A stretch of 64,000 nt of DNA, taken from the NCBI GenBank assembly GCA_964349555.1, contig CAYGGK010000001.1:120330-184329 (forward strand), written 5' to 3'. This DNA comes from an uncultured Candidatus Saccharibacteria bacterium (GTDB lineage Bacteria; Patescibacteriota; Minisyncoccia; Phycocordibacterales; Phycocordibacteraceae). Position numbers and translations under genes: made by a program. The notes beneath the pieces were generated by a model. It did not search any database and was not told the origin of the DNA. It saw only the letters and a program-made list of their open reading frames with translations. Of the stretch, positions 4,450-27,166 are shown piece by piece. The first letter of the stretch is position 1. Every line of letters starts with the position of its first letter.

Positions 4450-4512
4450 GTGGTGGGGAGGAGTGGGATATACTTCACTGATGGCTAGTAGAGTGGGAAG
4501 CGGGAGTGGTGG
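4450..4512 (+). promoter_or_regulatory. Candidate MraZ operator
   Basis: GTGGG repeats sit about 10 bp apart, just upstream of mraZ: GTGGG at 4453 and 4463, GTGGG at 4493, GTGGT at 4506. Confidence 0.45.
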
Positions 4513-4544
4513 CCTATTCCCCAACCGATTAGCCGTCAGTCACT

Positions 4545-4985
4545 ATGTTTCTCGGAGAATATATTCACATTTTTGATCCAAAAAATAGGATTTCGATTCC
4601 ATCGAAATTCAGAAAGGACCTTGGCCGTGTCGTCGTTGTGACGCGCGGCCTTGATAATTGTTTGTACCTCTACTCTCGCAAGGCGTGGGAGAGGGAGGCA
4701 CGAACCTATGCGGCTGAAATAAATGGGAGCGCGGCACGGCGCGGTCTTGCGCGCCTTTTTCTTGCCGGTTCTTCCGAAGTTGAGGTTGATCGATCTGGCC
4801 GGGTGCTTGTTCCCGAGCACCTGAAGTCTTTTGCCTCAATCAAAGAAAAAGCAGTTATCGCTGGCGTCGCTGACCGAGTAGAGATATGGGAAGAACGCGC
4901 GTGGAAGAAGTACACCGCAGGCATCGAACGCGACGCTAACGCATTTGCCGAGACCCTTGATAGTAACGCCAGTAATAAACACTAG
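4545..4985 (+). CDS. mraZ: Transcriptional regulator MraZ
   Basis: 146 aa. Two MraZ/SpoVT-AbrB-like halves (MFLGEYIHIFDPKNRISIPSKFR… and …SGRVLVPEHLKSFA…). Confidence 0.85.
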   Translation: MFLGEYIHIFDPKNRISIPSKFRKDLGRVVVVTRGLDNCLYLYSRKAWEREARTYAAEINGSAARRGLARLFLAGSSEVEVDRSGRVLVPEHLKSFASIKEKAVIAGVADRVEIWEERAWKKYTAGIERDANAFAETLDSNASNKH

Positions 4986-4986
4986 T

Positions 4987-5934
4987 ATGGAAGCTCGCCA
5001 CGATAGCGTACTTATGACTGAAGTGCTTGAAGCGCTCAAGGTACAGCAGGGCGACACGGTAGTGGACGCGACCTTAGGAGGGGCCGGGCACTTCGGAGCA
5101 CTTTTTGCGGAGCTCGGAGAGGCCGGCGTCATTATCGGCATAGACGCCGACCCGGCGGCCGTAGAGCGCGGGCGCGAAGCGTACGCGCTCGATCGGCGCT
5201 CGGAGAGGCCGGTCGCACATATAGTGAATGACAATTTTCGCAACCTCTCTCGTATAGTGGAGAGGCTCGGGATTGGGTCGGTGGACGCGATACTCTTTGA
5301 CCTTGGTTGGAGCGGATATCAGATAGCTTCGCCGCGGGGCTTCTCGTTCCAAAATGAAGAGCCGCTTCTTATGACGTATGGAGAAACAGGAGAAACGGCC
5401 GCCGACATCGTCAACAGCTCTTCAGAAAAACAACTTGCGGATATGATTTTCACGTACGGCGAAGAGCGTTTCGCGCGCAGTATCGCGCGCGCGATTGTAG
5501 AAGCTCGCTCGAAAGAACGCATACTCACGACCGGCGCGCTCGTTTCCGCAATCAAGGCCGGTACGCCGAAGTGGTATCACGAGGGGAAGTCTCACTTCGC
5601 GACAAAAACATTCCAAGCGCTTCGTATCGCGGTTAATGACGAGATCGCGGCCCTTCGTGAAGGGCTCACTGCGGCGCTGAGTTCACTCGCTCCTGGCGGA
5701 CGACTGGCTGTCATCTCATTTCATAGCATTGAGGACCGCGTCGTGAAGAATCTATTGCGTGATGCGGAGCACGCCGGCGTTGGCACGGCGACTGCGAAAA
5801 AACCAATCGTACCGACACGCGCAGAAGTTCTCGCAAACCGCCGTGCGCGAAGCGCGAAGATGCGCGTATTCAAGCGGTCGACTGTTCATTCCGAGCTCAT
5901 GAGTCCCGTTGCGCCAATTTTTAGATATGTCTAA
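4987..5934 (+). CDS. rsmH: 16S rRNA m4C1402 methyltransferase RsmH (MraW)
   Basis: VDATLGGAGHFG SAM motif and FDLGWSGYQ. It follows mraZ directly. Start taken at MEARHD. Confidence 0.85.
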   Translation: MEARHDSVLMTEVLEALKVQQGDTVVDATLGGAGHFGALFAELGEAGVIIGIDADPAAVERGREAYALDRRSERPVAHIVNDNFRNLSRIVERLGIGSVDAILFDLGWSGYQIASPRGFSFQNEEPLLMTYGETGETAADIVNSSSEKQLADMIFTYGEERFARSIARAIVEARSKERILTTGALVSAIKAGTPKWYHEGKSHFATKTFQALRIAVNDEIAALREGLTAALSSLAPGGRLAVISFHSIEDRVVKNLLRDAEHAGVGTATAKKPIVPTRAEVLANRRARSAKMRVFKRSTVHSELMSPVAPIFRYV

Positions 5935-6232: not shown

Positions 6233-8011
6233 ATGCGAGCGCAGTTCCGTTTCCGTATCCGCCTCATTCTTGCGGTCGTTATTTTTGTCGCGCTCTGTAT
6301 CCTTGTGAGACTGTATTTTGTTCAAATTGTGAATGGAGAAGAATACGCGCAGAAGGCCGATCGTCAATTCGCCTCCGGAAGCGGGCGACTCTTTGATCGT
6401 GGGACGATTTATTTCACTCGGAAGGATGGTTCGTTAATCTCCGCGGCGACGCTCTCCAGCGGCTTCCTCGTCGCCATCAATCCGCAAACGCTCACTGATC
6501 CAGAGTCCGCGTACGCCGCCATAACGGCCGTCGCTTCCTCAACGCTCTCACACAAGGCGTTTCTCGCCGCCGCCGCGAAGAAGTCGCAGGTATATATAGA
6601 AGTCGCCCATCGTCTCTCTGACGCTGAAGGACGCGCGCTTGCGACCAAGGAGATTCCGGGAGTACATGTGTTGCGTGAGCGCTGGAGGACGTACCCCGGC
6701 CTCTCTCTCGCCTCGCAGTCTATCGGTATCGTCTCCTACGGCTCCGGCGATATTCTTGCGGGACGAACAGGTCTTGAAGCGATGTATGACGACACGCTCG
6801 CTCGCTCCGGCGACTCGCTGTATAAGAATTTCTTCTCAGAGCTTTTTTCCAATGTCGGGAATATACTGGTTTCTACAAAAGAGGTTAGAGAGGGCGATAT
6901 CATAACGACTATAGAGCCGGAAGTGCAGACGCACCTTGCAAACAGTCTCGCAAAACTAAATAAGCGTTATACGAGCAAAGAGTCCGGCGGGATCATTATG
7001 GACCCAGCTACTGGGGCGATTATAGCGATCGTGAGTTACCCGAGCTACGACGGCAACGACCTTAAGAGTGTTGACCCAGCGAGGCTCGGCAATCCTCTCG
7101 TAGAGCACGTGTACGAATTCGGTTCTATCATGAAGCCTCTCACGATGACTGCGGCGTTTGACGCCGGAGTCATCACTCCGCGGACGACCTATAACGATAC
7201 GGGCTGTATTACGGTAAATACGAGAAAGGTCTGCAACTGGGACCTCAAAGCGCGCGGTGTTATACCAGTAGAGCAGATTCTTCTGAAGTCGCTGAACGTC
7301 GGGGCGTCGTGGATGGCGGCCGAGCTGGGGCAAGAAAGGTTTCGCGCATACTTCGTTAAACTTTTTGGACAAAAGACGGGCATTGATATGCCGAACGAGA
7401 CAGGGGCCCTTCTTGGGAATCTCTCCAAGCCACAGCAGATCGGGTATGCTACTGCCTCGTTCGGACAGGGAATCGCGCTCACACCCGTGCAAATGATTCG
7501 AGCTCTCGGAGCCATAGCCAACAAGGGGGAGATGGTCCAGCCGCACTTGGTAAGCGCGATACGCCTTGATTCCGGCATAGAGCGAAAACTGGACTGGAAT
7601 GAAAAAGTTCCTGTTTTTTCTACGACGTCCACGCGCGAGACCATCGAGATAATGGGGAAGTTAAATGACGAGATCCTCTCTGAGGGAAAAGCAAAGATTC
7701 CGACTATGTCGGTGGCGGTGAAGACGGGAACGGCGCAACTCACCACGCCTGGGGGTGGCTATTATACCGACCGTTTCTTCCACTCATTTGTCGGCTTTTT
7801 CCCTTCGTACAATGCGCGCTTCATTATCCTGCTCTACACGAATGACCCGCAGGGCGTGCAGTACGCGTCGGAGACGCTTACCGCGACGTTCCTTGATCTT
7901 GTACGCTTTCTAATTGATTATTATGCCGTGCCGCCCGATCGTGGATTCGATGAACTCACCACAGGTGGATTCGACGAACTCACCACAGGCGGTCTTCCTT
8001 CTGAAATATGA
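6233..8011 (+). CDS. ftsI: Penicillin-binding protein FtsI-type transpeptidase
   Basis: 592 aa with SxxK (SIMKP) and KTG (VKTGTAQ) motifs. It sits in the dcw cluster. The C-terminus ends with a GFDELTTG x2 tandem repeat. Confidence 0.8.
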   Translation: MRAQFRFRIRLILAVVIFVALCILVRLYFVQIVNGEEYAQKADRQFASGSGRLFDRGTIYFTRKDGSLISAATLSSGFLVAINPQTLTDPESAYAAITAVASSTLSHKAFLAAAAKKSQVYIEVAHRLSDAEGRALATKEIPGVHVLRERWRTYPGLSLASQSIGIVSYGSGDILAGRTGLEAMYDDTLARSGDSLYKNFFSELFSNVGNILVSTKEVREGDIITTIEPEVQTHLANSLAKLNKRYTSKESGGIIMDPATGAIIAIVSYPSYDGNDLKSVDPARLGNPLVEHVYEFGSIMKPLTMTAAFDAGVITPRTTYNDTGCITVNTRKVCNWDLKARGVIPVEQILLKSLNVGASWMAAELGQERFRAYFVKLFGQKTGIDMPNETGALLGNLSKPQQIGYATASFGQGIALTPVQMIRALGAIANKGEMVQPHLVSAIRLDSGIERKLDWNEKVPVFSTTSTRETIEIMGKLNDEILSEGKAKIPTMSVAVKTGTAQLTTPGGGYYTDRFFHSFVGFFPSYNARFIILLYTNDPQGVQYASETLTATFLDLVRFLIDYYAVPPDRGFDELTTGGFDELTTGGLPSEI

Positions 8012-9312
8012 AAAATATTCTAAAATTAATTGTTACCGGCATTCTTGGGCTCGTCGCGCGAGCGGTGATACGTCGATATGAGCCGCGCATCGTTATGGTG
8101 AGCGGCTCGGTCGGGAAGACCTCTACAAAGGATGCGGTCGCGGCGGTGCTCTCTACCCGTTTTTTCGTACGCAAGAGCGAAAAGAGTTTTAACAGTGAGT
8201 GGGGGGTCCCCTTTACCATTCTCGGAGTAAAAAATCCGTGGCACAATCCGCTCGCGTGGGGTTCAATTATAAAACGTTCCTTCACGCTCCTTTTTCTGCC
8301 GAACCACTATCCGAACATGCTGGTGCTCGAGGTGGGCGCGGATAAGCGTGGCGACCTCTCTCGCATACTGCGCATCGCGACGCCCCACGCGGTCGTGATA
8401 ACGCGCCTCCCTGAGATACCGGTGCATGTTGAAGCGTATACGTCGCCTGAGGAGGTGCGGGAAGAAGAATTTTCTCCCGCATACGCCTTGCCGCCTGCCG
8501 CGCCCCTTATTATTCCGGCAGATGACCCATACGCAAGAAACAATGCCGCGCGCATCCCCGCGCGCGTTATGTCATACGGTGTCGAGAGCGATGCAGACGT
8601 GCGAGTAAGCGGCGTTGATTTTTATGAGAGCGAAGGAAAAGTCGCCGGGATGCAAGCGAGAGTGCGTGTAGGTGAAGAAGAGGGGGACATCATCGCGAAC
8701 AATTCTGTCGGCATAACACAGCTCCTGCCGATCGCGGCCGCCCTTGCCGTCGCGCAGGCTCTCGCGATACCTCTCGACGAAGCACTTACTGCATTAAAGA
8801 GCTACGAACCGCCGCCCGGTCGCGGGCGTCTTCTCAGAGGGAAGAACGGCTCAATCATCATTGACGATTCTTATAACTCTTCACCTGCCGCGGCTGAAGA
8901 AGCGCTCGCGACCCTAAAGACGTTCCCGAGGGCGAAACGCCCCTCCGCCGCCGAGGCTACGAAGGGCAGGCGCATCGCGGTGCTTGGCGACATGCTGGAA
9001 TTGGGGCGTTATTCGGTAACCGAGCACGAGCGCATAGGAGTGCTCGCGGATGAGTCGGCTGATTTGGTTGTTGCAGTCGGCATCCGCGCGAAGACATTTG
9101 CCGGGGCGTTTAAAAAGTCTGAAGGTATGCTGTTTGATAGTTCACGCTCCGCCGCGCTTGCTCTCCCGTCTCTCATTCGTGAGGGCGACGTCATTCTTGT
9201 AAAAGGTTCCCAGTCCGTCCGCACCGAACGCATCGTTGAAGCCCTTCTCGCGAATCCCTCTGATGCCTCCCTCCTCGTTCGCCAAGAACCCGAATGGAAA
9301 CGGAGGTTATAA
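8008..9312 (+). CDS. murF: UDP-N-acetylmuramoyl-tripeptide--D-alanyl-D-alanine ligase
   Basis: Mur ligase P-loop VMVSGSVGKTSTKD. It follows ftsI. Its last ~27 codons are repeated twice downstream. Confidence 0.8.
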   Translation: MKNILKLIVTGILGLVARAVIRRYEPRIVMVSGSVGKTSTKDAVAAVLSTRFFVRKSEKSFNSEWGVPFTILGVKNPWHNPLAWGSIIKRSFTLLFLPNHYPNMLVLEVGADKRGDLSRILRIATPHAVVITRLPEIPVHVEAYTSPEEVREEEFSPAYALPPAAPLIIPADDPYARNNAARIPARVMSYGVESDADVRVSGVDFYESEGKVAGMQARVRVGEEEGDIIANNSVGITQLLPIAAALAVAQALAIPLDEALTALKSYEPPPGRGRLLRGKNGSIIIDDSYNSSPAAAEEALATLKTFPRAKRPSAAEATKGRRIAVLGDMLELGRYSVTEHERIGVLADESADLVVAVGIRAKTFAGAFKKSEGMLFDSSRSAALALPSLIREGDVILVKGSQSVRTERIVEALLANPSDASLLVRQEPEWKRRL

Positions 9313-9349
9313 GTCCGCGTCTCTGTGCTTGCCCGCCCGCCCAGTGCAC

Positions 9350-9392
9350 GCACAACTCAGCCCCGCCGTTTTAGGAGACATTGTAAAACGGC
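9350..9392. terminator. Hairpin between convergent murF and SET gene
   Basis: agccccgccgtttta…taaaacggcggggct forms a ~15-bp stem. Confidence 0.5.
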
Positions 9393-9411
9393 GGGGCTGG
9401 CTCCCTACGCT

Positions 9412-9813
9412 CTATGACTTACGCTTTATGCCCCGCTTTTTTAAATCTTTCTCGGCTTCAAACTCTAAATAATTTTGTGTTAGTTCCTCGCCCTTCTTTA
9501 TATCTCGTGCCGCAACTAGGTGCGCTTCGGTAAAGTTTTTGTCCTGCGTTACGATCGCCTCGTAGGAGTGGTTGATAAAGTGCGTAACATCAAAATCAAC
9601 GTGCCACTTTTGGCTTGGTTCGTCAAAAAATCCCCAATACTGTATTTCGCGCCTTTCCTTTTCGTCGAGTGAATCAAACTGTTCTGGAGTTAGGTTCACA
9701 TCAAGAAGCGGACTTTGGGTGTAGATGAGTGTCCCTGCCGGTATATTTTCGTCAGCGAACATGCCAACGCCGTGATGCTCTGATTTATCCAGTTTGTACT
9801 TGATGTGTATCAT
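9412..9813 (-). CDS. SET-domain protein (putative protein lysine methyltransferase)
   Basis: GVGMFA…IPAGTLI, an NHS(Y) pseudo-knot region (FINHSYEA) and an ELTQNY post-SET-like motif. Start taken at MIHIKYK. Confidence 0.55.
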   Translation of the reverse strand: MIHIKYKLDKSEHHGVGMFADENIPAGTLIYTQSPLLDVNLTPEQFDSLDEKERREIQYWGFFDEPSQKWHVDFDVTHFINHSYEAIVTQDKNFTEAHLVAARDIKKGEELTQNYLEFEAEKDLKKRGIKRKS

Positions 9814-9817
9814 ACTG

Positions 9818-10405
9818 CTATTTTCTAGTTTGTTTGCGCCACACGAGCATTCCGACAAAAGCGAGGTTTGCGAGAACGAGCGACGCTGGATAGAGCGCGG
9901 TTGTCCAAGTAAAACTCTCAAGCGCAAACAAACTGACGGCGAACTTCAAGCCGGAAAGCCCGTATGTCCAGCCATTCTCTGTTTCGGGGTTAAAAAATGC
10001 TTTGCGGAATGTCGGCACAAAAGCAACGGCATCAATAATCGTGATGATTATAACCGACCAGAGTGGATTGCCGGTGAAATACCAAATCGGGACAGTGAAC
10101 AGGGCGCTTGTAAAAAATATCCAGTCGTTTTTCGTTATAAATACCCGAGATGACGCTCCAAGGCCGACAGCCGCAAAACCGAAACTGCAAAGCGCGGTAA
10201 CGCCCGTAACCCACGCACCCGCGCCGCCGCCTTCGGTTATTTGCGCGACGAACGCTATTGCGGTCAAAAGTCCCCAGACGAACCAGCTGAATGCGTGCGG
10301 TTTGACCTTGCCTTGCAAAATCCCGCGCACATAAAACACATAACCGAACAGACCGAGCGCGACGGCTATGCCGCCTAATATTTCTTGCGTAGTGAATATA
10401 TCCAC
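9818..10405 (-). CDS. Hypothetical polytopic membrane protein
   Basis: Five to six hydrophobic helices, with a GTG start. It sits 4 nt upstream of the SET gene. Confidence 0.45.
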   Translation of the reverse strand: MDIFTTQEILGGIAVALGLFGYVFYVRGILQGKVKPHAFSWFVWGLLTAIAFVAQITEGGGAGAWVTGVTALCSFGFAAVGLGASSRVFITKNDWIFFTSALFTVPIWYFTGNPLWSVIIITIIDAVAFVPTFRKAFFNPETENGWTYGLSGLKFAVSLFALESFTWTTALYPASLVLANLAFVGMLVWRKQTRK

Positions 10406-10429
10406 AACTTCATTTTAGCAGTCTTCTTA

Positions 10430-10531
10430 ACCGATTTGTACTGGCGACACATCGTTGAGGCGCTCCTTGCCAACCCCTCCGACGCGTCCCTCCTCGTTCG
10501 CCAAGAACGCGAGTGGAAACGCAAGGGGTGA
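10430..10531 (+). repeat. Copy B of the murF 3' coding terminus
   Basis: In frame it encodes …DLYWRHIVEALLANPSDASLLVRQEREWKRKG*. It is about 80% identical to murF 9231-9312 and about 95% identical to copy C. Confidence 0.85.
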
Positions 10532-10616
10532 GGACTCCTAACCTACGCGGGAACGGCTCACATGGGAAGAAATGAGCCGTTCAGTGCAAATACTGAAAGG
10601 TACGGAGCGGGCTCCC

Positions 10617-11132
10617 TTATGAGAAACTTATAGCGGTTTTTATCTTTCCAACCAACTCCTCCACGCTCATATTGCTTGTATCAATAAGAACTGAACCGAG
10701 CCGCTCTTTTTTTAGTGCATCGGCCTTTTCCCACATCTCACCTACCCGCTCACGCGTAAGAAGACTTCCGGGCCGGTAGCCGCGTTCGTCCGCTCGCTTT
10801 TGCACGGTGTATTTATCGGCAAACAACAGAAATTCATATACATCGGCACCATGCGCTCGTCCGGCTTCAATCAGTGAATCAACCGTCTCTGATTGTGATA
10901 TTGCTTTGTCGATAATGACGTCCTGTCCCAATTTCAAGTGATGTCCGACGGTTTCGGCCGCTTTCTGGTATGAAATCTGAAGGCTCTCCGCTCGTCGTTC
11001 TTTGTAGTCCGGCACCGATCTTCGAATCTCATCAATATCGAGAAGCACAGAGTTCGGCATGTCCGCATGTAAAAGCTTTGAAATTGTCGATTTTCCTACT
11101 CCGGGCGGGCCATTAAGGATTATGAGTTTCAT
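10617..11132 (-). CDS. P-loop (AAA-type) small-molecule kinase-like protein
   Basis: Walker A ILNGPPGVGKST. At 171 aa it is in the size range of shikimate/gluconate-kinase-like or zeta-like NTPases. Confidence 0.5.
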   Translation of the reverse strand: MKLIILNGPPGVGKSTISKLLHADMPNSVLLDIDEIRRSVPDYKERRAESLQISYQKAAETVGHHLKLGQDVIIDKAISQSETVDSLIEAGRAHGADVYEFLLFADKYTVQKRADERGYRPGSLLTRERVGEMWEKADALKKERLGSVLIDTSNMSVEELVGKIKTAISFS

Positions 11133-11212
11133 AACGCATTATTCCGGCTTAAAGGCCTTTTTTCTTTCTGATACAAGGGATTTACGAGCGCGTAAATCTT
11201 TATTACTCATAT

Positions 11213-11620
11213 TCATTTCGGCGCCGTCTTGAACTGCGGCCAGTGGTCACAGATATCATAGTACGCACCCTTATCCTTCGTGAAAATGTGTTGCGCCGAT
11301 TTTATTCTAGCTTTCTCATCAAGTAGCCCGAGCAAAACGTAAACACGTGCATAGCCTTTTCTATCCCAAGTTATGGACGCCCCGCAGTTGCCGCAGAAGG
11401 TGCGAGTCGTGTTAGAGGATGATTTATACGACAGCAGTTTTTTCGTTCGGTTTATCTTGAACGAATCGCGAAGTGCGCCGACGAACGCGCCGTACATGCC
11501 GTAGTTCTTGCGGCACTGCGAACAGTGGCAAAACCACACGTCATCGAGCGAGCCGGTAAACGAAAATTTTATCGCGCCGCAGCCGCAGGAACCGCGATGC
11601 GTTTTTACCGTTGTCGTCAT
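11213..11620 (-). CDS. GFA/CENP-V family zinc-binding protein
   Basis: Cys clusters GSCGCG, CHCSQCRK and CGNCG. Start taken at MTTTVKTHRG. Confidence 0.6.
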   Translation of the reverse strand: MTTTVKTHRGSCGCGAIKFSFTGSLDDVWFCHCSQCRKNYGMYGAFVGALRDSFKINRTKKLLSYKSSSNTTRTFCGNCGASITWDRKGYARVYVLLGLLDEKARIKSAQHIFTKDKGAYYDICDHWPQFKTAPK

Positions 11621-11645
11621 GTCTTGAGTATAGCGGATTGCCATC

Positions 11646-11746
11646 CCGATTTGTACTGGCGACACATCGTTGAGGCGCTCCTTGCCAACCCATCCGACGC
11701 CTCGCTCCTCGTTCGCCAAGAACGCGAGTGGAAACGCAGATTATAA
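11646..11746 (+). repeat. Copy C of the murF 3' coding terminus
   Basis: Encodes …DLYWRHIVEALLANPSDASLLVRQEREWKRRL*. Confidence 0.85.
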
Positions 11747-12322
11747 ATCCATCTTTTTCTCGTTGAGCGTATCACGCCAGAGAGTAAGGGCCTCTTGCAT
11801 CTCAGTATCCTCAGGATAAACGGAAAGATATTCTTCCATTAGGGGGATTGCCTTATCTAGCTGGTTAAGCTGGCTATATGCAGATGCGGCAAGTAGAGCA
11901 ATCGCTTTGTCGCTAGGGAAGAATGCATACGCAGATTTAAACTCGTCAGCTGCTTCTTGATATTTTCCAACTTTGTACGCTGCTTGCGCGTTCTGCAGTT
12001 GTTTCTTTGCATGAATCAACGGCCGATTCTTTGGGTCGAGAGATGCGAAAAGACCTGAATCTGTTTTTGTCTGCACCGTGCGACTTGGTATAGCGGCGAA
12101 TGAGCCCGGCTTTTGAACAGCCACAAACTTCTTTTTACTGGAAGAGTTGTAAGACACTGCCGAAATACCAGTGCCCGGAATACCGACACTGGTATATGTT
12201 CCACGACTGTTTACACCAACTCGAGCGCCACGTACCCCGGCACTCAAGCCAAGACCCCCTTTACTCACATTGAGCTTCAATCCGGGAAGAATCTTAAATG
12301 ATTTGCGAAAACGGAAAGCCAT
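11741..12322 (-). CDS. DUF4236-like N-terminus with C-terminal TPR repeats
   Basis: MAFRFRKSFKILPGLKLNVSKGGLGLS motif, followed by TPR-like helices. Confidence 0.5.
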   Translation of the reverse strand: MAFRFRKSFKILPGLKLNVSKGGLGLSAGVRGARVGVNSRGTYTSVGIPGTGISAVSYNSSSKKKFVAVQKPGSFAAIPSRTVQTKTDSGLFASLDPKNRPLIHAKKQLQNAQAAYKVGKYQEAADEFKSAYAFFPSDKAIALLAASAYSQLNQLDKAIPLMEEYLSVYPEDTEMQEALTLWRDTLNEKKMDL

Positions 12323-12358
12323 CACTATATATTGTACCAAGAAGCAACGGAAACGCTG

Positions 12359-12430
12359 TGACCCTACGGAGAATCGAACTCCGGTTCCATCCTTGAGAAG
12401 GATGTGTCCTAACCGTTAGACGATAGGGCC
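12359..12430 (-). tRNA. tRNA-Glu (anticodon CUC)
   Basis: Folded by hand into a 72-nt cloverleaf. Acceptor GGCCCTA/TAGGGTC, anticodon loop TTCTCAA, T-loop TTCGATT. Confidence 0.7.
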
Positions 12431-12443
12431 TCACTGTTTTATA

Positions 12444-12472
12444 ACAAAAAAACACCGGTGTTGCCACCGGTG
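12444..12472 (-). terminator. Rho-independent terminator
   Basis: caccggtg-ttgc-caccggtg hairpin. On the - strand it is followed by a T-run, and an 11-G run adjoins it. Confidence 0.55.
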
Positions 12473-12485
12473 GGGGGGGGGGAGT

Positions 12486-12686
12486 TCAATCATCTTTTTC
12501 TCCCATTATTCTGTTTTGCAAACTGCGTGCCTGCACGTTGCGCCGCTCCTGTTCTTCTGCCTTCTCCAGAGCATCTCTTTTGCTCTTCGCTACTCTGAGC
12601 CTTTCTAGCGCTTCCTGAAGATCTGTCTGGCCGTGCTCCCCTTGGTTTGACTTGTCCATAGGACCTTTCTCCATATTGGTGGACAT
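12486..12686 (-). CDS. Small hypothetical coiled-coil protein
   Basis: 66-aa ORF with charged helices and a terminator downstream. No strong RBS. Confidence 0.25.
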   Translation of the reverse strand: MSTNMEKGPMDKSNQGEHGQTDLQEALERLRVAKSKRDALEKAEEQERRNVQARSLQNRIMGEKDD

Positions 12687-12728
12687 GAGTGAAGTATAAC
12701 AAATAATGGCGCTTGTCTATAGACGCTA

Positions 12729-13181
12729 TTAACCGAGAAGAGAGTCCACAACCGCTTTGACGTCGGCGCCGTCGGCCTTACCCTTAAGCTCCTTCATCAG
12801 CGCGCCGGTAAACTTGCCCGCATCCGCCTTCGACGAAATACCTAACTCAACCATTTTTGCCTTCGCGATAGGTACGATTTCTTCACGACTTATTTGGGAG
12901 GGGAGATACGCCTGCAATATGGCGAGCTCAAGCTTCTCCGGCTCTACGAGGTCGTGACGAGCCGCTTTCTCAAATTGCTCTATGGAGTCTTTTCTTTGGT
13001 TAACCGCTCTTTTAACAACAGCCAGTGCCTCGTCGTCGTTGAGGTATTCGTCGGGCTTGCGCCCTTTAGCAACGGCCTCGTTCGTCATGGCGGTTACAAG
13101 TGAGCGGAGAGTCCGGAGCCTTACTTCGTCGTGCGCCCGTAGGGCGTCGGGAATAGACTTCTTAATTTCTTCGTGGATAGC
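12729..13181 (-). CDS. GatB/YqeY domain protein
   Basis: All-helical, about 150 aa, with the typical YqeY layout (…AILQAYLP…ADGADVKAVVDSLLG). Confidence 0.6.
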   Translation of the reverse strand, partial: AIHEEIKKSIPDALRAHDEVRLRTLRSLVTAMTNEAVAKGRKPDEYLNDDEALAVVKRAVNQRKDSIEQFEKAARHDLVEPEKLELAILQAYLPSQISREEIVPIAKAKMVELGISSKADAGKFTGALMKELKGKADGADVKAVVDSLLG

Positions 13182-13206
13182 CATAAGGCAGAGTATACTA
13201 TACCGC

Positions 13207-14256
13207 ATGAGCCTGTTACAGATTTTCATACTTATTATAGTGTTAGTCTTCGTGCAGGGTATCGGCCTCTATTTCATGTTTCGCAAGCGCTCCGCACAGT
13301 CAGAGGAGGGGAGCGGCATGGTGCTCTTGCAACAGCAGATGCAGGAGCTTGCGCGCACGCTCGACACGCGCATGTCCGAGTCGTCGCGCGCGATGCAGGA
13401 GAGCTCCCACAAGCAATTTTCCGAGTCAAACCGACTTATCAAAGAGATCACGCAGGAGGTGACGTCGGTGAAAGAGATCGGCCGGCAGACGCAGGGCTTC
13501 GCCGAGCAATTGCAAAATCTGCAGGACATCCTCAAGAACCCGAAACAGCGCGGCATTCTCGGCGAATATTATCTGGAGACGGTCTTAAAGAACGTGCTCC
13601 CGCCCGGGATGTACAAGATGCAGTACCCATTTAAAAACGGCGAAATAGTCGATGCCGCAGTATTCGTGAGCGACAAGATAGTCCCGATAGACTCTAAGTT
13701 CTCGCTTGAGAACTACAACCGCCTCGTGCACGCAAGCGAGGCAGAGAAGCCCGCATTTGAGAAGGCGTTTGTGAACGACCTCAAGCTTCGTATTCAAGAA
13801 ACGGCAAAGTATATCCGGCCGGAGGAAAACACGATGGACTTCGCCTTTATGTTTATCCCCTCTGAGGGCATCTATTACGACCTCCTCACCAACCAGGTAG
13901 GTGGTGGGGAAGATGAGAACTTAATACAGAGGGCGGCAGGGAAGTGGAAAGTTATCATCGTCTCCCCAACCTCTTTTCTGGCCTATTTACAAACAGTCAT
14001 GCAGGGGTTGAAAGCGCTCAAAATAGAAGAGAAGGCCGTGGAGATACAGCAGAGGGTCGGGGAATTGGGGAAGCACGTCGCCGCGTATGAAGAGTTTTAT
14101 CGTAAACTCGGTGTCTCGCTTGGCACGAGCGTGAGCCACTACAATGCAGGCTACAAAGAGCTCGGCAAGATAGACAAAGATGTTTATCGCATCAGCGAAT
14201 CCAAAATCGACATAGAACCCGAACTCCTCGACAAGCCGGTACTGATTGAGGAGTAA
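13207..14256 (+). CDS. rmuC: DNA recombination protein RmuC
   Basis: N-terminal TM helix, a long coiled-coil, and the C-terminal RmuC nuclease-like region (…FMFIPSEGIYYDLL…). Start at MSLLQIF. Confidence 0.7.
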   Translation: MSLLQIFILIIVLVFVQGIGLYFMFRKRSAQSEEGSGMVLLQQQMQELARTLDTRMSESSRAMQESSHKQFSESNRLIKEITQEVTSVKEIGRQTQGFAEQLQNLQDILKNPKQRGILGEYYLETVLKNVLPPGMYKMQYPFKNGEIVDAAVFVSDKIVPIDSKFSLENYNRLVHASEAEKPAFEKAFVNDLKLRIQETAKYIRPEENTMDFAFMFIPSEGIYYDLLTNQVGGGEDENLIQRAAGKWKVIIVSPTSFLAYLQTVMQGLKALKIEEKAVEIQQRVGELGKHVAAYEEFYRKLGVSLGTSVSHYNAGYKELGKIDKDVYRISESKIDIEPELLDKPVLIEE

Positions 14257-26200: not shown

Positions 26201-27166
26201 TCAGTTATTAAGCTCGCTTCCCCCGTGGAATTTTTCGTGTATATCGCGGAGTCGTTTATTCGTCACGTGCGTGTAGATCTGGGTTGTCGCGACGTTTTTA
26301 TGTCCGAGCAATTCTTGCACACTGCGCAGGTCTGCGCCGTGGGAGAGAAGGTCGGTCGCGTAGCTGTGCCGGAGCGTGTGGGGAGTGACCTTTTTTGAGA
26401 GGCCCGCGAGTACCGCGCATCGGGATATCATTTTCTGAATAGAGCGCGGGGACAAGCGTTTTGCGTCCGCGTCATCCTTGTGTCGGAAGTTTATAAAAAG
26501 GGGAGTATGCACGTCGCGCCTCGCCACGAGATACGTTCGGAGCCATTCGGCCGCCCGAGGTGAGATAAAAATGGTTCTGACATGATTCCCTTTACCAACG
26601 ATAGATAATTCGTAGGTCCGTGTATGACTTTTGTCGTTAAGAAACGAAACTTGGTCCGTATCAAGCGCGACAAGCTCGCTGATGCGCATGCCAGACGAGA
26701 AAAAAAGTTCCATAATGGCCCGATCGCGCAAGCCGTTTAAAGTTGCTACGTCAGGAACTTTCATCATCTTCTCCACATCGTGTACGTCAAGGAAGGAAAG
26801 AGTCTCTTCTGTCTTTTGTTTTGCCAATTTAATTTTTGAAGAAGGAAGAGACTCTATGTCGCGATCGGCGAGATAGTTGAGAAACGCGCGCAGAGCTATA
26901 AGGTAATAGTTCTGGGACTTTTTGCCGAGGTATCCGCCGGAAGGTGTCGTATATTTGCGTGCGAGGTAGAGACGATAATCCCATATATGCTTTGGCGTGA
27001 GTTCGTGAGGCAAGAGTCCCTCGTCTCCATTTTTCTTCAGCCAGCCCATAAAAAGTTGTAAGTACTGCTTGTAATTTTTTTGCGTATTACTCGACAGTCC
27101 TTTTTCAACCTCGCAGTAATCGAGGAAGGGAAGGAGGTGGTTAGAGAGCGATTGCTTGTCGCGCAT
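26201..27166 (-). CDS. Tyrosine site-specific recombinase (XerC/XerD-like)
   Basis: R…HTLRHSYATDLL…LGH…TQIYTHV catalytic box. Confidence 0.8.
   Translation of the reverse strand: MRDKQSLSNHLLPFLDYCEVEKGLSSNTQKNYKQYLQLFMGWLKKNGDEGLLPHELTPKHIWDYRLYLARKYTTPSGGYLGKKSQNYYLIALRAFLNYLADRDIESLPSSKIKLAKQKTEETLSFLDVHDVEKMMKVPDVATLNGLRDRAIMELFFSSGMRISELVALDTDQVSFLNDKSHTRTYELSIVGKGNHVRTIFISPRAAEWLRTYLVARRDVHTPLFINFRHKDDADAKRLSPRSIQKMISRCAVLAGLSKKVTPHTLRHSYATDLLSHGADLRSVQELLGHKNVATTQIYTHVTNKRLRDIHEKFHGGSELNN

Follow-up and report, generated by a model that had tools for sequence, protein, structure and literature searches.

A putative minimal SET-domain methyltransferase in a cassette array between murF and tRNA-Glu of a Patescibacteria genome

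Introduction

Several characterised bacterial SET proteins are nucleomodulins that type III or type IV secretion systems deliver into eukaryotic cells. NUE (Chlamydia), RomA/LegAS4 (Legionella), BtSET (Burkholderia) and BaSET (Bacillus anthracis) are larger than the protein studied here and carry ankyrin domains, nuclear localisation signals (NLS) or secretion determinants (PMC3980110; PMC10117894). A different precedent is Go1-SET of Methanosarcina mazei, a small stand-alone prokaryotic SET protein whose substrate, MC1-alpha, is an endogenous basic DNA-binding protein (PMC3980110). Here, we analyse the SET-domain gene located at positions 9412-9813 of a stretch of 64,000 nucleotides from an uncultured Candidatus Saccharibacteria bacterium (assembly GCA_964349555.1, contig CAYGGK010000001.1, positions 120,330 to 184,329 of the forward strand). 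We call this whole stretch the window, and coordinates refer to it unless another locus is named. An initial annotation had described the gene as a sporadic bacterial SET methyltransferase, encoded in a mobile-looking cassette and possibly acquired as a host-interaction factor. We find that it belongs to a large and strongly constrained family of very probably active enzymes, and that the cassette in which it lies is part of an array of a more unusual kind than the protein itself.

The window protein differs from each of the described SET enzymes. It lacks the features of the secreted nucleomodulins, and we found no sign of a eukaryotic host. Its likeness to Go1-SET, which is our favoured functional model, is one of description, and MC1 is an archaeal protein that is not expected in bacteria of the Candidate Phyla Radiation (CPR). 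PBCV-1 vSET, S. pombe Set7 and P. falciparum PFL0690c are viral or eukaryotic histone methyltransferases; the window family is prokaryotic, only 18-21% identical to them, has a Gln at the position of the Phe/Tyr switch of MLL1 (ELTQNY) and displays conserved segments of its own (WHVDFDV and YLEFExEEDL). Identity to the SET domains of the KMT2/MLL-SET1 group is 20-28%, yet the window protein has no post-SET Cys cluster and, unlike these domains, is not found in a multi-domain protein or in a WRAD-type complex. Finally, BurB, the methionine S-methyltransferase of B. thailandensis, is 19% identical; its gene belongs to a biosynthetic gene cluster and its substrate is free methionine, whereas the locus in the window has no such cluster.

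The array of which the SET gene is part lies between murF and tRNA-Glu(CTC). Its comparators are the integrative elements that target 3' ends of genes or tRNAs, integron cassettes, and Xer-dependent elements of the dif-module or IMEX type. The array is like these comparators in its precise insertion at one site, its duplicated target 3' end, its tandem arrangement, its small cargo and the empty site in relatives. It is unlike them in that there is no integrase in or beside it, that no palindrome of the attC or dif type was recognised, and that its cassettes carry their own promoter-like element and hairpin.

Results

The SET gene, its motifs and its fold

The SET gene lies on the minus strand, from the ATG at 9813 to the TAG at 9414-9412, and encodes 133 residues. 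Its start codon is fixed because 32 homologues from other assemblies, 65-84% identical and all starting with MIHIKYKL, can be aligned from Met1 to the end. A longer version started at a TTG (to 9927) was rejected, as it overlaps the upstream gene and is not backed by the starts of the homologues. The gene is real, since it has 568 homologous clusters and a ratio of non-synonymous to synonymous divergence (omega) of about 0.06-0.1 where synonymous divergence (dS) is measurable. The coordinates and the domain call of the initial annotation were therefore correct: the open reading frame is exact, and Pfam SET (PF00856) matches residues 15-115 with E=4.8e-14 and 53.1 bits, well above the gathering cut-off of 22.4 bits, over positions 1-104 of the 105 of the profile.

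We placed the motifs by pairwise alignment to MLL1 and by comparing a profile of 112 family members with KMT2D and KMT2C. This profile matches the KMT2/MLL SET domains (KMT2D/KMT2C) with E=2.5e-17, with the GxG, NHS and EELTxxY motifs aligned. Motif I (GxG) corresponds to H14-G15-V16-G17-M-F19 and aligns with GRGLF of MLL1. In motif II (YxG), the Tyr of EYAG in MLL1 is matched by Y31, which does not vary within the close clade; the Gly of this motif is missing from the window protein (YTQSP), and in the wider family the place of Y31 is often taken by Trp. Motif III, F79-I-N81-H82-S83, falls on RFINHSC with the canonical Cys changed to Tyr, as expected of a SET domain without a post-SET zinc site. 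Motif IV, E109-E110-L-T-Q-N-Y115, falls on EELTYDY of MLL1 and KMT2D, and because Y115 aligns with the final Tyr of ELTYDY we take it to be the conserved catalytic Tyr. Among the 112 diverse family members, N81 and E110 are invariant and G15, G17, F19, H82 and Y115 are at least 90% conserved. Both the catalytic Tyr (Y115) and the pseudoknot residues (N81-H82) are thus present on the alignment. The protein contains no cysteine and hence no pre- or post-SET zinc cluster, a trait that it shares with vSET and SET8.

An earlier structure prediction using 33 close homologues reached a predicted local distance difference test (pLDDT) score of only 67. Redone with an alignment of 112 diverse sequences, the AlphaFold model has a pLDDT of 93.5, and its structural neighbours include PBCV-1 vSET (3kma), S. 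pombe Set7 (5h6z), SET8 and PFL0690c (4rz0). The modelling thus recovers the SET fold, with minimal SET enzymes as its neighbours. The architecture resembles that of minimal enzymes (vSET, Set7), whereas the sequence resembles the KMT2/SET1 group. Judging from its motifs and predicted fold, we are highly confident that the window protein is a bona fide, active SET methyltransferase, i.e. a class V enzyme dependent on S-adenosylmethionine (SAM).

A large family under strong constraint

Contrary to the view of the SET protein as a sporadic bacterial oddity, we found a large conserved family spread over many CPR classes. The 568 clusters mentioned above (90% identity, E<=1e-3) come from a word-seeded search; the best 120 of them are 66-100% identical to the window protein and 129-146 residues long, and those with a name are Kaiserbacteria, Falkowbacteria and Parcubacteria. 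An exhaustive search of representatives at 50% identity yielded 1151 clusters at E<=1e-3, of which 134 reach E<=1e-10, the best 150 matches being mostly stand-alone proteins of 110-150 residues. Several family members are already named SET proteins by automatic database annotation. We also scanned GTDB with one genome per species (185,579 representatives), using exact-peptide seeding with two family peptides, and found at least 59 SET loci, a number that is a lower bound.

The CPR carriers include Adlerbacteria (80% identity), Nomurabacteria, Kaiserbacteria, Uhrbacteria, Woesebacteria, Saccharimonadales, Berkelbacteria and Yanofskybacteria, and identity across CPR classes is 60-84%. Among DPANN, two Pacearchaeota (L060, L061) carry a member of the clade, at 48%. 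Around ten further carriers are metagenome-assembled genomes (MAGs) that bear the label of Alpha- or Gammaproteobacteria, Bdellovibrionales or Lactobacillaceae. Sequences from outside CPR group into sub-clades of their own, each specific to a taxon, e.g. with WGFWIE or MILI-YE signatures. The members of the clade outside CPR (L060, L061, L027, L029, L037, L048, L051, L052, L055, L056, L059 and L062) are 43-64% identical. More distant relatives (30-36%), labelled 'SET domain-containing protein', are carried by plasmids in free-living Priestia, Bradyrhizobium and Paracoccus.

Between the window gene and every homologue dS is saturated, with a non-synonymous divergence of 0.15-0.28, and omega is 0.06-0.11 among the SET pairs with measurable dS. 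The G+C content (GC) of the SET gene correlates with that of its 10-kb surroundings (r=0.85 over 56 loci, with a constant offset of -0.054 +/- 0.035), and the window copy, with 0.438 vs 0.518 in its flank, departs from the family offset by at most 0.75 standard deviations. Compared with orthologues shared between the same genomes, the SET protein always ranks first in conservation (71 vs 55, 72 vs 48/64, 61 vs 57, 61 vs 49, 63 vs 29 and 61 vs 43% identity). The saturated dS, the tracking of GC and the conservation above that of orthologues together argue for an old residence under very strong constraint, acting over the whole 130 residues. Recent horizontal transfer was accordingly rejected as the source of the high identity, since dS is saturated and GC ameliorated. 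This pattern of substitution is that of neither a recently transferred gene nor a rapidly evolving protein of the host interface. The description of the gene as acquired thus holds relative to the nearest sequenced relatives and fails as an isolated acquisition, given that the family is large, GC-adapted and constrained.

A phage or defence origin of the gene was also rejected. Neither the SET protein nor the membrane protein encoded next to it matches PHROG or PADLOC, tblastn of the SET protein gave no match in 50,697 phage records, and 2.9 million viral contigs contain one distant (36%) SET match only.

Secretion features and the neighbouring membrane protein

A hydropathy scan of the SET protein revealed no signal peptide, no transmembrane (TM) or other hydrophobic segment and no hydrophobic N-terminus; the maximum 19-residue Kyte-Doolittle value is 0.63 and the net charge is -7. 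The protein consists of the SET core only, with no ankyrin, NLS-type or other effector domain, and the NCBIfam model of LegAS4/AnkI (NF043024) gives 18 bits against a cut-off of 550. The window copy ends in a Lys/Arg-rich tail, KKRGIKRKS, which is not conserved in the family (whose members end in ...DLxRRGI). The genes called over some 60 kb of the window concern cell wall, translation, chaperones and competence, and no secretion-system gene was recognisable among them. Hence, lacking a signal peptide, extra domains, nearby secretion genes and a conserved partner, the effector reading is unsupported; the role in host interaction that the initial annotation had proposed finds no backing in any feature beyond lifestyle and stays conjectural.

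The neighbouring membrane-protein gene (9818-10405, minus strand, GTG start) encodes an uncharacterised protein of 195 residues with some 6-7 TM helices. It has no Pfam, NCBIfam, PHROG or PADLOC family, and 1106 homologues in CPR. The two genes share a strand, with 4 nt between its stop and the SET ATG, so that co-transcription of the two genes, as initially suggested, is probable, and coupled translation likely. Yet the pair is not conserved: out of 61 distinct SET loci, the membrane protein adjoins SET in three, namely the window and, with the opposite gene order, L043 and L045, and none of the three close homologues of the membrane protein has a SET neighbour. In fact, no neighbour of SET is conserved in the 61 loci, where the commonest are a Ser hydrolase (8), a SAM-dependent methyltransferase (7) and a small unknown protein (5). 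That the two genes are paired here is a matter of chance in what this cassette contains, and does not reflect a conserved functional module.

In the Kaiserbacterium locus L074 the membrane protein (5001-5597) is 86% identical to that of the window, and here too its gene is found downstream of murF. MurF, PBP (penicillin-binding protein) and RsmH, which are core proteins, reach only 64-74% identity between this locus and the window, which suggests either exchange among relatives or an unusually strong constraint on the membrane protein.

The cassette array between murF and tRNA-Glu(CTC)

The best relatives of the window MurF are 68-74% identical and named Kaiserbacteria, placing the window organism among the Patescibacteria (CPR) near these. 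Relatives keep the order mraZ-rsmH-ftsL-like-PBP-murF ... yqeY-rmuC, and it is the stretch after murF that varies. In L072 the site (8270-8355) is empty, with just 12 nt separating the murF stop from the 3' end of tRNA-Glu(CTC), which lies on the minus strand. It is also empty (4489-4641) in L112, the closest relative (MurF 73% identical), where the murF frame runs straight into tRNA-Glu(CTC). The flanks of L112 align with the window up to the junction, and positions 9301-12350 of the window have no counterpart in L112 or L072. In L071 (8276-9595) there is a single cassette, i.e. an unrelated gene followed by a murF-end remnant touching the tRNA. The murF/tRNA-Glu(CTC) junction is thus an insertion hot spot, empty in L072 and L112, with one cassette in L071 and three in the window. 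Calling the SET locus a mobile-looking cassette was therefore fair, considering the empty site in L112 and L072, the murF-end repeats and the insert of 3.05 kb.

This insert is made of three segments, each with a copy of the murF 3' end at its end. Its features are as follows.

9189-9312, plus strand: functional 3' end of murF, which is repeat copy 1; 19-nt core CTCCTCGTTCGCCAAGAAC at 9271-9289
9313-10523: segment 1 of the insert, membrane-protein and SET genes
9358-9399, no strand: perfect hairpin with a stem of 16 bp, where murF and the SET gene converge; z = -3.5 (minus strand) and -5.7 (plus strand)
10408-10523, plus strand: murF-end remnant 2, right boundary of the SET and membrane-protein cassette; murF-like at 10447-10521, core at 10490-10508
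10412-10440, minus strand: putative promoter-like element, TACAAA, 17 nt, TAAAAT, 6 nt to the GTG of the membrane-protein gene; read by eye
10524-11746: segment 2, P-loop kinase and GFA genes
10551-10582, no strand: hairpin with a stem of 10 bp, GAACGGCTCA...TGAGCCGTTC, following the kinase gene, where cassette 2 has its left end
10617-11132, minus strand: P-loop kinase gene (AAA_33 / Zeta_toxin-like) of cassette 2; weak PADLOC match to VakA
11213-11644, minus strand: gene of the GFA family (Cys-rich, zinc) in cassette 2; start probably the ATG at 11620 or 11644
11655-11627, minus strand: promoter-like element before the GFA gene, TACAAA, 17 nt, TATACT, 6 nt, ATG at 11620; read by eye
11623-11746, plus strand: murF-end remnant 3, with the repeated murF 3' end at 11623-11738; core at 11705-11723, TAA stop still present
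11747-12357: segment 3, DUF4236-TPR gene
11741-12322, minus strand: DUF4236 and TPR gene of cassette 3; its DUF4236 part matches several PHROGs
12336-12357, plus strand: degenerate fourth murF-end remnant CCAAGAAGCAACGGAAACGCTG, abutting the tRNA; read by eye, compare the remnant in L071
12358-12430, minus strand: tRNA-Glu(CTC), which relatives keep to the right of murF

Three murF-end copies contain an identical 19-nt core, CTCCTCGTTCGCCAAGAAC (3 found vs 0.01 expected). Remnants 2 and 3 have in common, on their left, a further stretch of about 20 nt (CCGATTTGTACTGGCGACAC; 10431-10450 and 11646-11665) that is not murF-like. On the minus strand, this stretch lies 29 nt upstream of the first start codon of each of the two cassettes. 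Its geometry, TACAAA, 17 nt, TAxAxT, 6 nt and start codon, read by eye, would point to leaderless transcripts. A consensus scan for promoters and terminators over 9000-13400 found nothing convincing, and it did not report the promoter-like element because the -35 box matches at only three of six positions. At their 3' ends, the two-gene cassettes have strong hairpins (9358-9399 and 10551-10582, z -3.5 to -5.7), and the one at 9358-9399 is likely a two-way transcription stop, though it has no run of T. Contigs from other samples break inside remnant 2, as is often the case with repeats.

No recombinase is encoded between 9.3 and 12.4 kb. The only one seen in the window is an Xer-like tyrosine recombinase of 321 residues with Phage_int_SAM_1/4 and Phage_integrase domains, 14 kb away (26201-27166, minus strand). 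We recognised no attC-like or dif-like palindrome in the array. Matches to tRNA-Glu within the cassettes are only 7-9 nt long and not significant (E >= 0.59), and an integrase targeting the tRNA and leaving a fragment of it in the cassettes was rejected on these grounds. We likewise rejected a diversity-generating retroelement, or another retroelement, as the origin of the murF-end repeats, since the window has no reverse transcriptase, notwithstanding the reverse-transcriptase gene (RVT_1) that lies directly beside the same tRNA-Glu in L071 (9681-10778). A search for further cassettes with the 19-nt core in metagenomes of the Joint Genome Institute (JGI) gave 34 matches, of which 31 are chance 19-23-mers and three are murF ends of distant CPR (MurF 40-44% identical); a scan of viral sequences gave one chance match to the core and none to the shared flank. 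No murF-end remnant was found in L070, L072 or L074.

Some further observations concern these loci. The cassettes are of nearly equal length and unrelated in gene content: those of the window measure 1219 and 1215 nt (from 9271 to 10490 and on to 11705), and that of L071 measures 1215 nt (8276 to 9491). The hairpin GAACGGCTCA...TGAGCCGTTC recurs with similar flanks downstream of murF in L074 (6195-6226), inside an unusually long non-coding, GC-rich stretch (about 1.07 kb) that follows the membrane-protein gene. L089, L101 and L103, in which MurF is 40-44% identical, have tRNA-Glu(CTC) soon after murF and the identical 19-nt sequence at the murF end (LLVRQE). The murF frame of L112 (3299-4641) has no stop before tRNA-Glu and continues antisense through most of the tRNA, giving a product of 443 residues. 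In the window, the end of the PBP gene (6233-8011) encodes, at about 7950-8005, the same eight residues twice in tandem (GFDELTTG GFDELTTG), immediately ahead of the overlap with the start of murF.

Discussion

The strong and uniform constraint on the SET protein bears directly on what it may do. On balance, and by analogy with Go1-SET, we lean towards a minimal cytoplasmic SET enzyme that methylates a lysine of a conserved basic protein of the bacterium itself. G15-x-G17 and N81-H82 would bind the SAM cofactor, to judge from the motifs, and Y115 together with Y31 would line the channel in which the target amine receives the methyl group of SAM. The protein would remain in the cytoplasm, and its substrate might be, for example, a nucleoid-associated or a ribosomal protein; the acidic surface and the conserved C-terminal segment YLEFExEEDL would suit a basic one. 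Since the sequence is nearly uniform across lineages that cannot share one host, the target itself should be universal, conserved and of the bacterium. Methylation of MC1-alpha by Go1-SET provides the precedent of a prokaryotic SET enzyme with an endogenous basic-protein substrate (PMC3980110). As for the gene, it is the second of a probable two-gene transcription unit, after the membrane-protein gene, and this unit forms one of three recombinase-less cassettes between murF and tRNA-Glu(CTC), each insertion of which would have regenerated or duplicated the murF 3' end.

Several observations weigh against this reading. The family is patchy, with the 59 or more loci that we found scattered over 185,579 species, and SET usually sits amid miscellaneous small accessory genes, unlike a core housekeeping modifier. 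The carriers are mostly episymbiotic lineages (CPR, Pacearchaeota), which may leave room for a role at the host interface, as may export routes particular to CPR that use signals of another kind. The beta-fold of the SET domain is present as judged by overall fold similarity, from which the pseudoknot topology was not separated. BurB, for its part, is a small bacterial SET enzyme that acts on a metabolite and not on a protein; by analogy with its S-methylation of free methionine, the window protein could be a small-molecule methyltransferase, which we regard as unlikely.

Equally unlikely, in our opinion, is that the protein is an exported effector of an episymbiont that methylates host proteins in the manner of NUE in Chlamydia or RomA/LegAS4 in Legionella. 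Several characterised bacterial SET proteins are indeed effectors of this kind (PMC3980110; PMC10117894), the carriers are mainly host-dependent CPR and Pacearchaeota, the cassette that holds the gene is acquired and also encodes a membrane protein directly beside it, and the protein of the window ends in the basic tail KKRGIKRKS. However, this tail is not conserved in the family and neither is the membrane partner; the protein has no signal peptide, hydrophobic segment or extra domain, its score with the LegAS4 model is far below the cut-off, and the neighbourhood has no secretion-system genes. Effectors are, moreover, not typically under such strong purifying selection, nor so uniform in sequence among lineages whose hosts must differ, and the family has close relatives in MAGs of Proteobacteria as well as distant ones that soil bacteria with a free-living habit carry on plasmids. 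One might also imagine an inactive remnant, or a non-catalytic SET-like binding protein, carried in a decaying island, in view of the integrase-less fragments and degraded murF ends of the array, and of the absence of the Cys of the NHSC motif and of the post-SET zinc motif. Yet the reading frame is intact and of full length, hundreds of homologues retain all the cofactor and catalytic motifs, omega lies far below 1, and among the structural neighbours are vSET, S. pombe Set7 and SET8, which have no post-SET region and are catalytically active enzymes. We thus consider inactivity highly improbable.

A broader question is how the SET gene came to lie in the array. One might tentatively propose, at rather long odds, that the SET gene is cargo of an undescribed, recombinase-less gene-capture system of Kaiserbacteria-like CPR. 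Cassettes made of a promoter-like flank, one or two genes and a hairpin would insert site-specifically at the 19-nt core in the last codons of murF, beside tRNA-Glu(CTC); every insertion would regenerate the murF end, and a recombinase encoded elsewhere, perhaps the Xer-like one, would act in trans. The SET enzyme would then be one of a set of exchangeable accessory functions shared by episymbiotic CPR and DPANN. We hold this speculative scheme, taken as a whole, to be improbable.

The SET superfamily is well known and relatives of the window protein are already annotated. Yet our full-text searches of the literature available to us found no relevant report on SET proteins in Patescibacteria, CPR, Saccharibacteria or DPANN, and protein-lysine methylation is not known to have been studied in CPR/Patescibacteria. 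Two points seem to us of interest, the unusual conservation of the SET clade and the recombinase-less array at murF/tRNA-Glu. The latter is a concrete example of the exchange of accessory genes in tiny genomes without integrases of their own. Our results also correct the default assumption that a bacterial SET protein is a host effector. A SET protein of 130 residues that is more conserved across CPR classes than cell-wall and repair proteins points to an important and conserved substrate, and knowing which it is would shed light on how organisms with hardly any described regulators are regulated.

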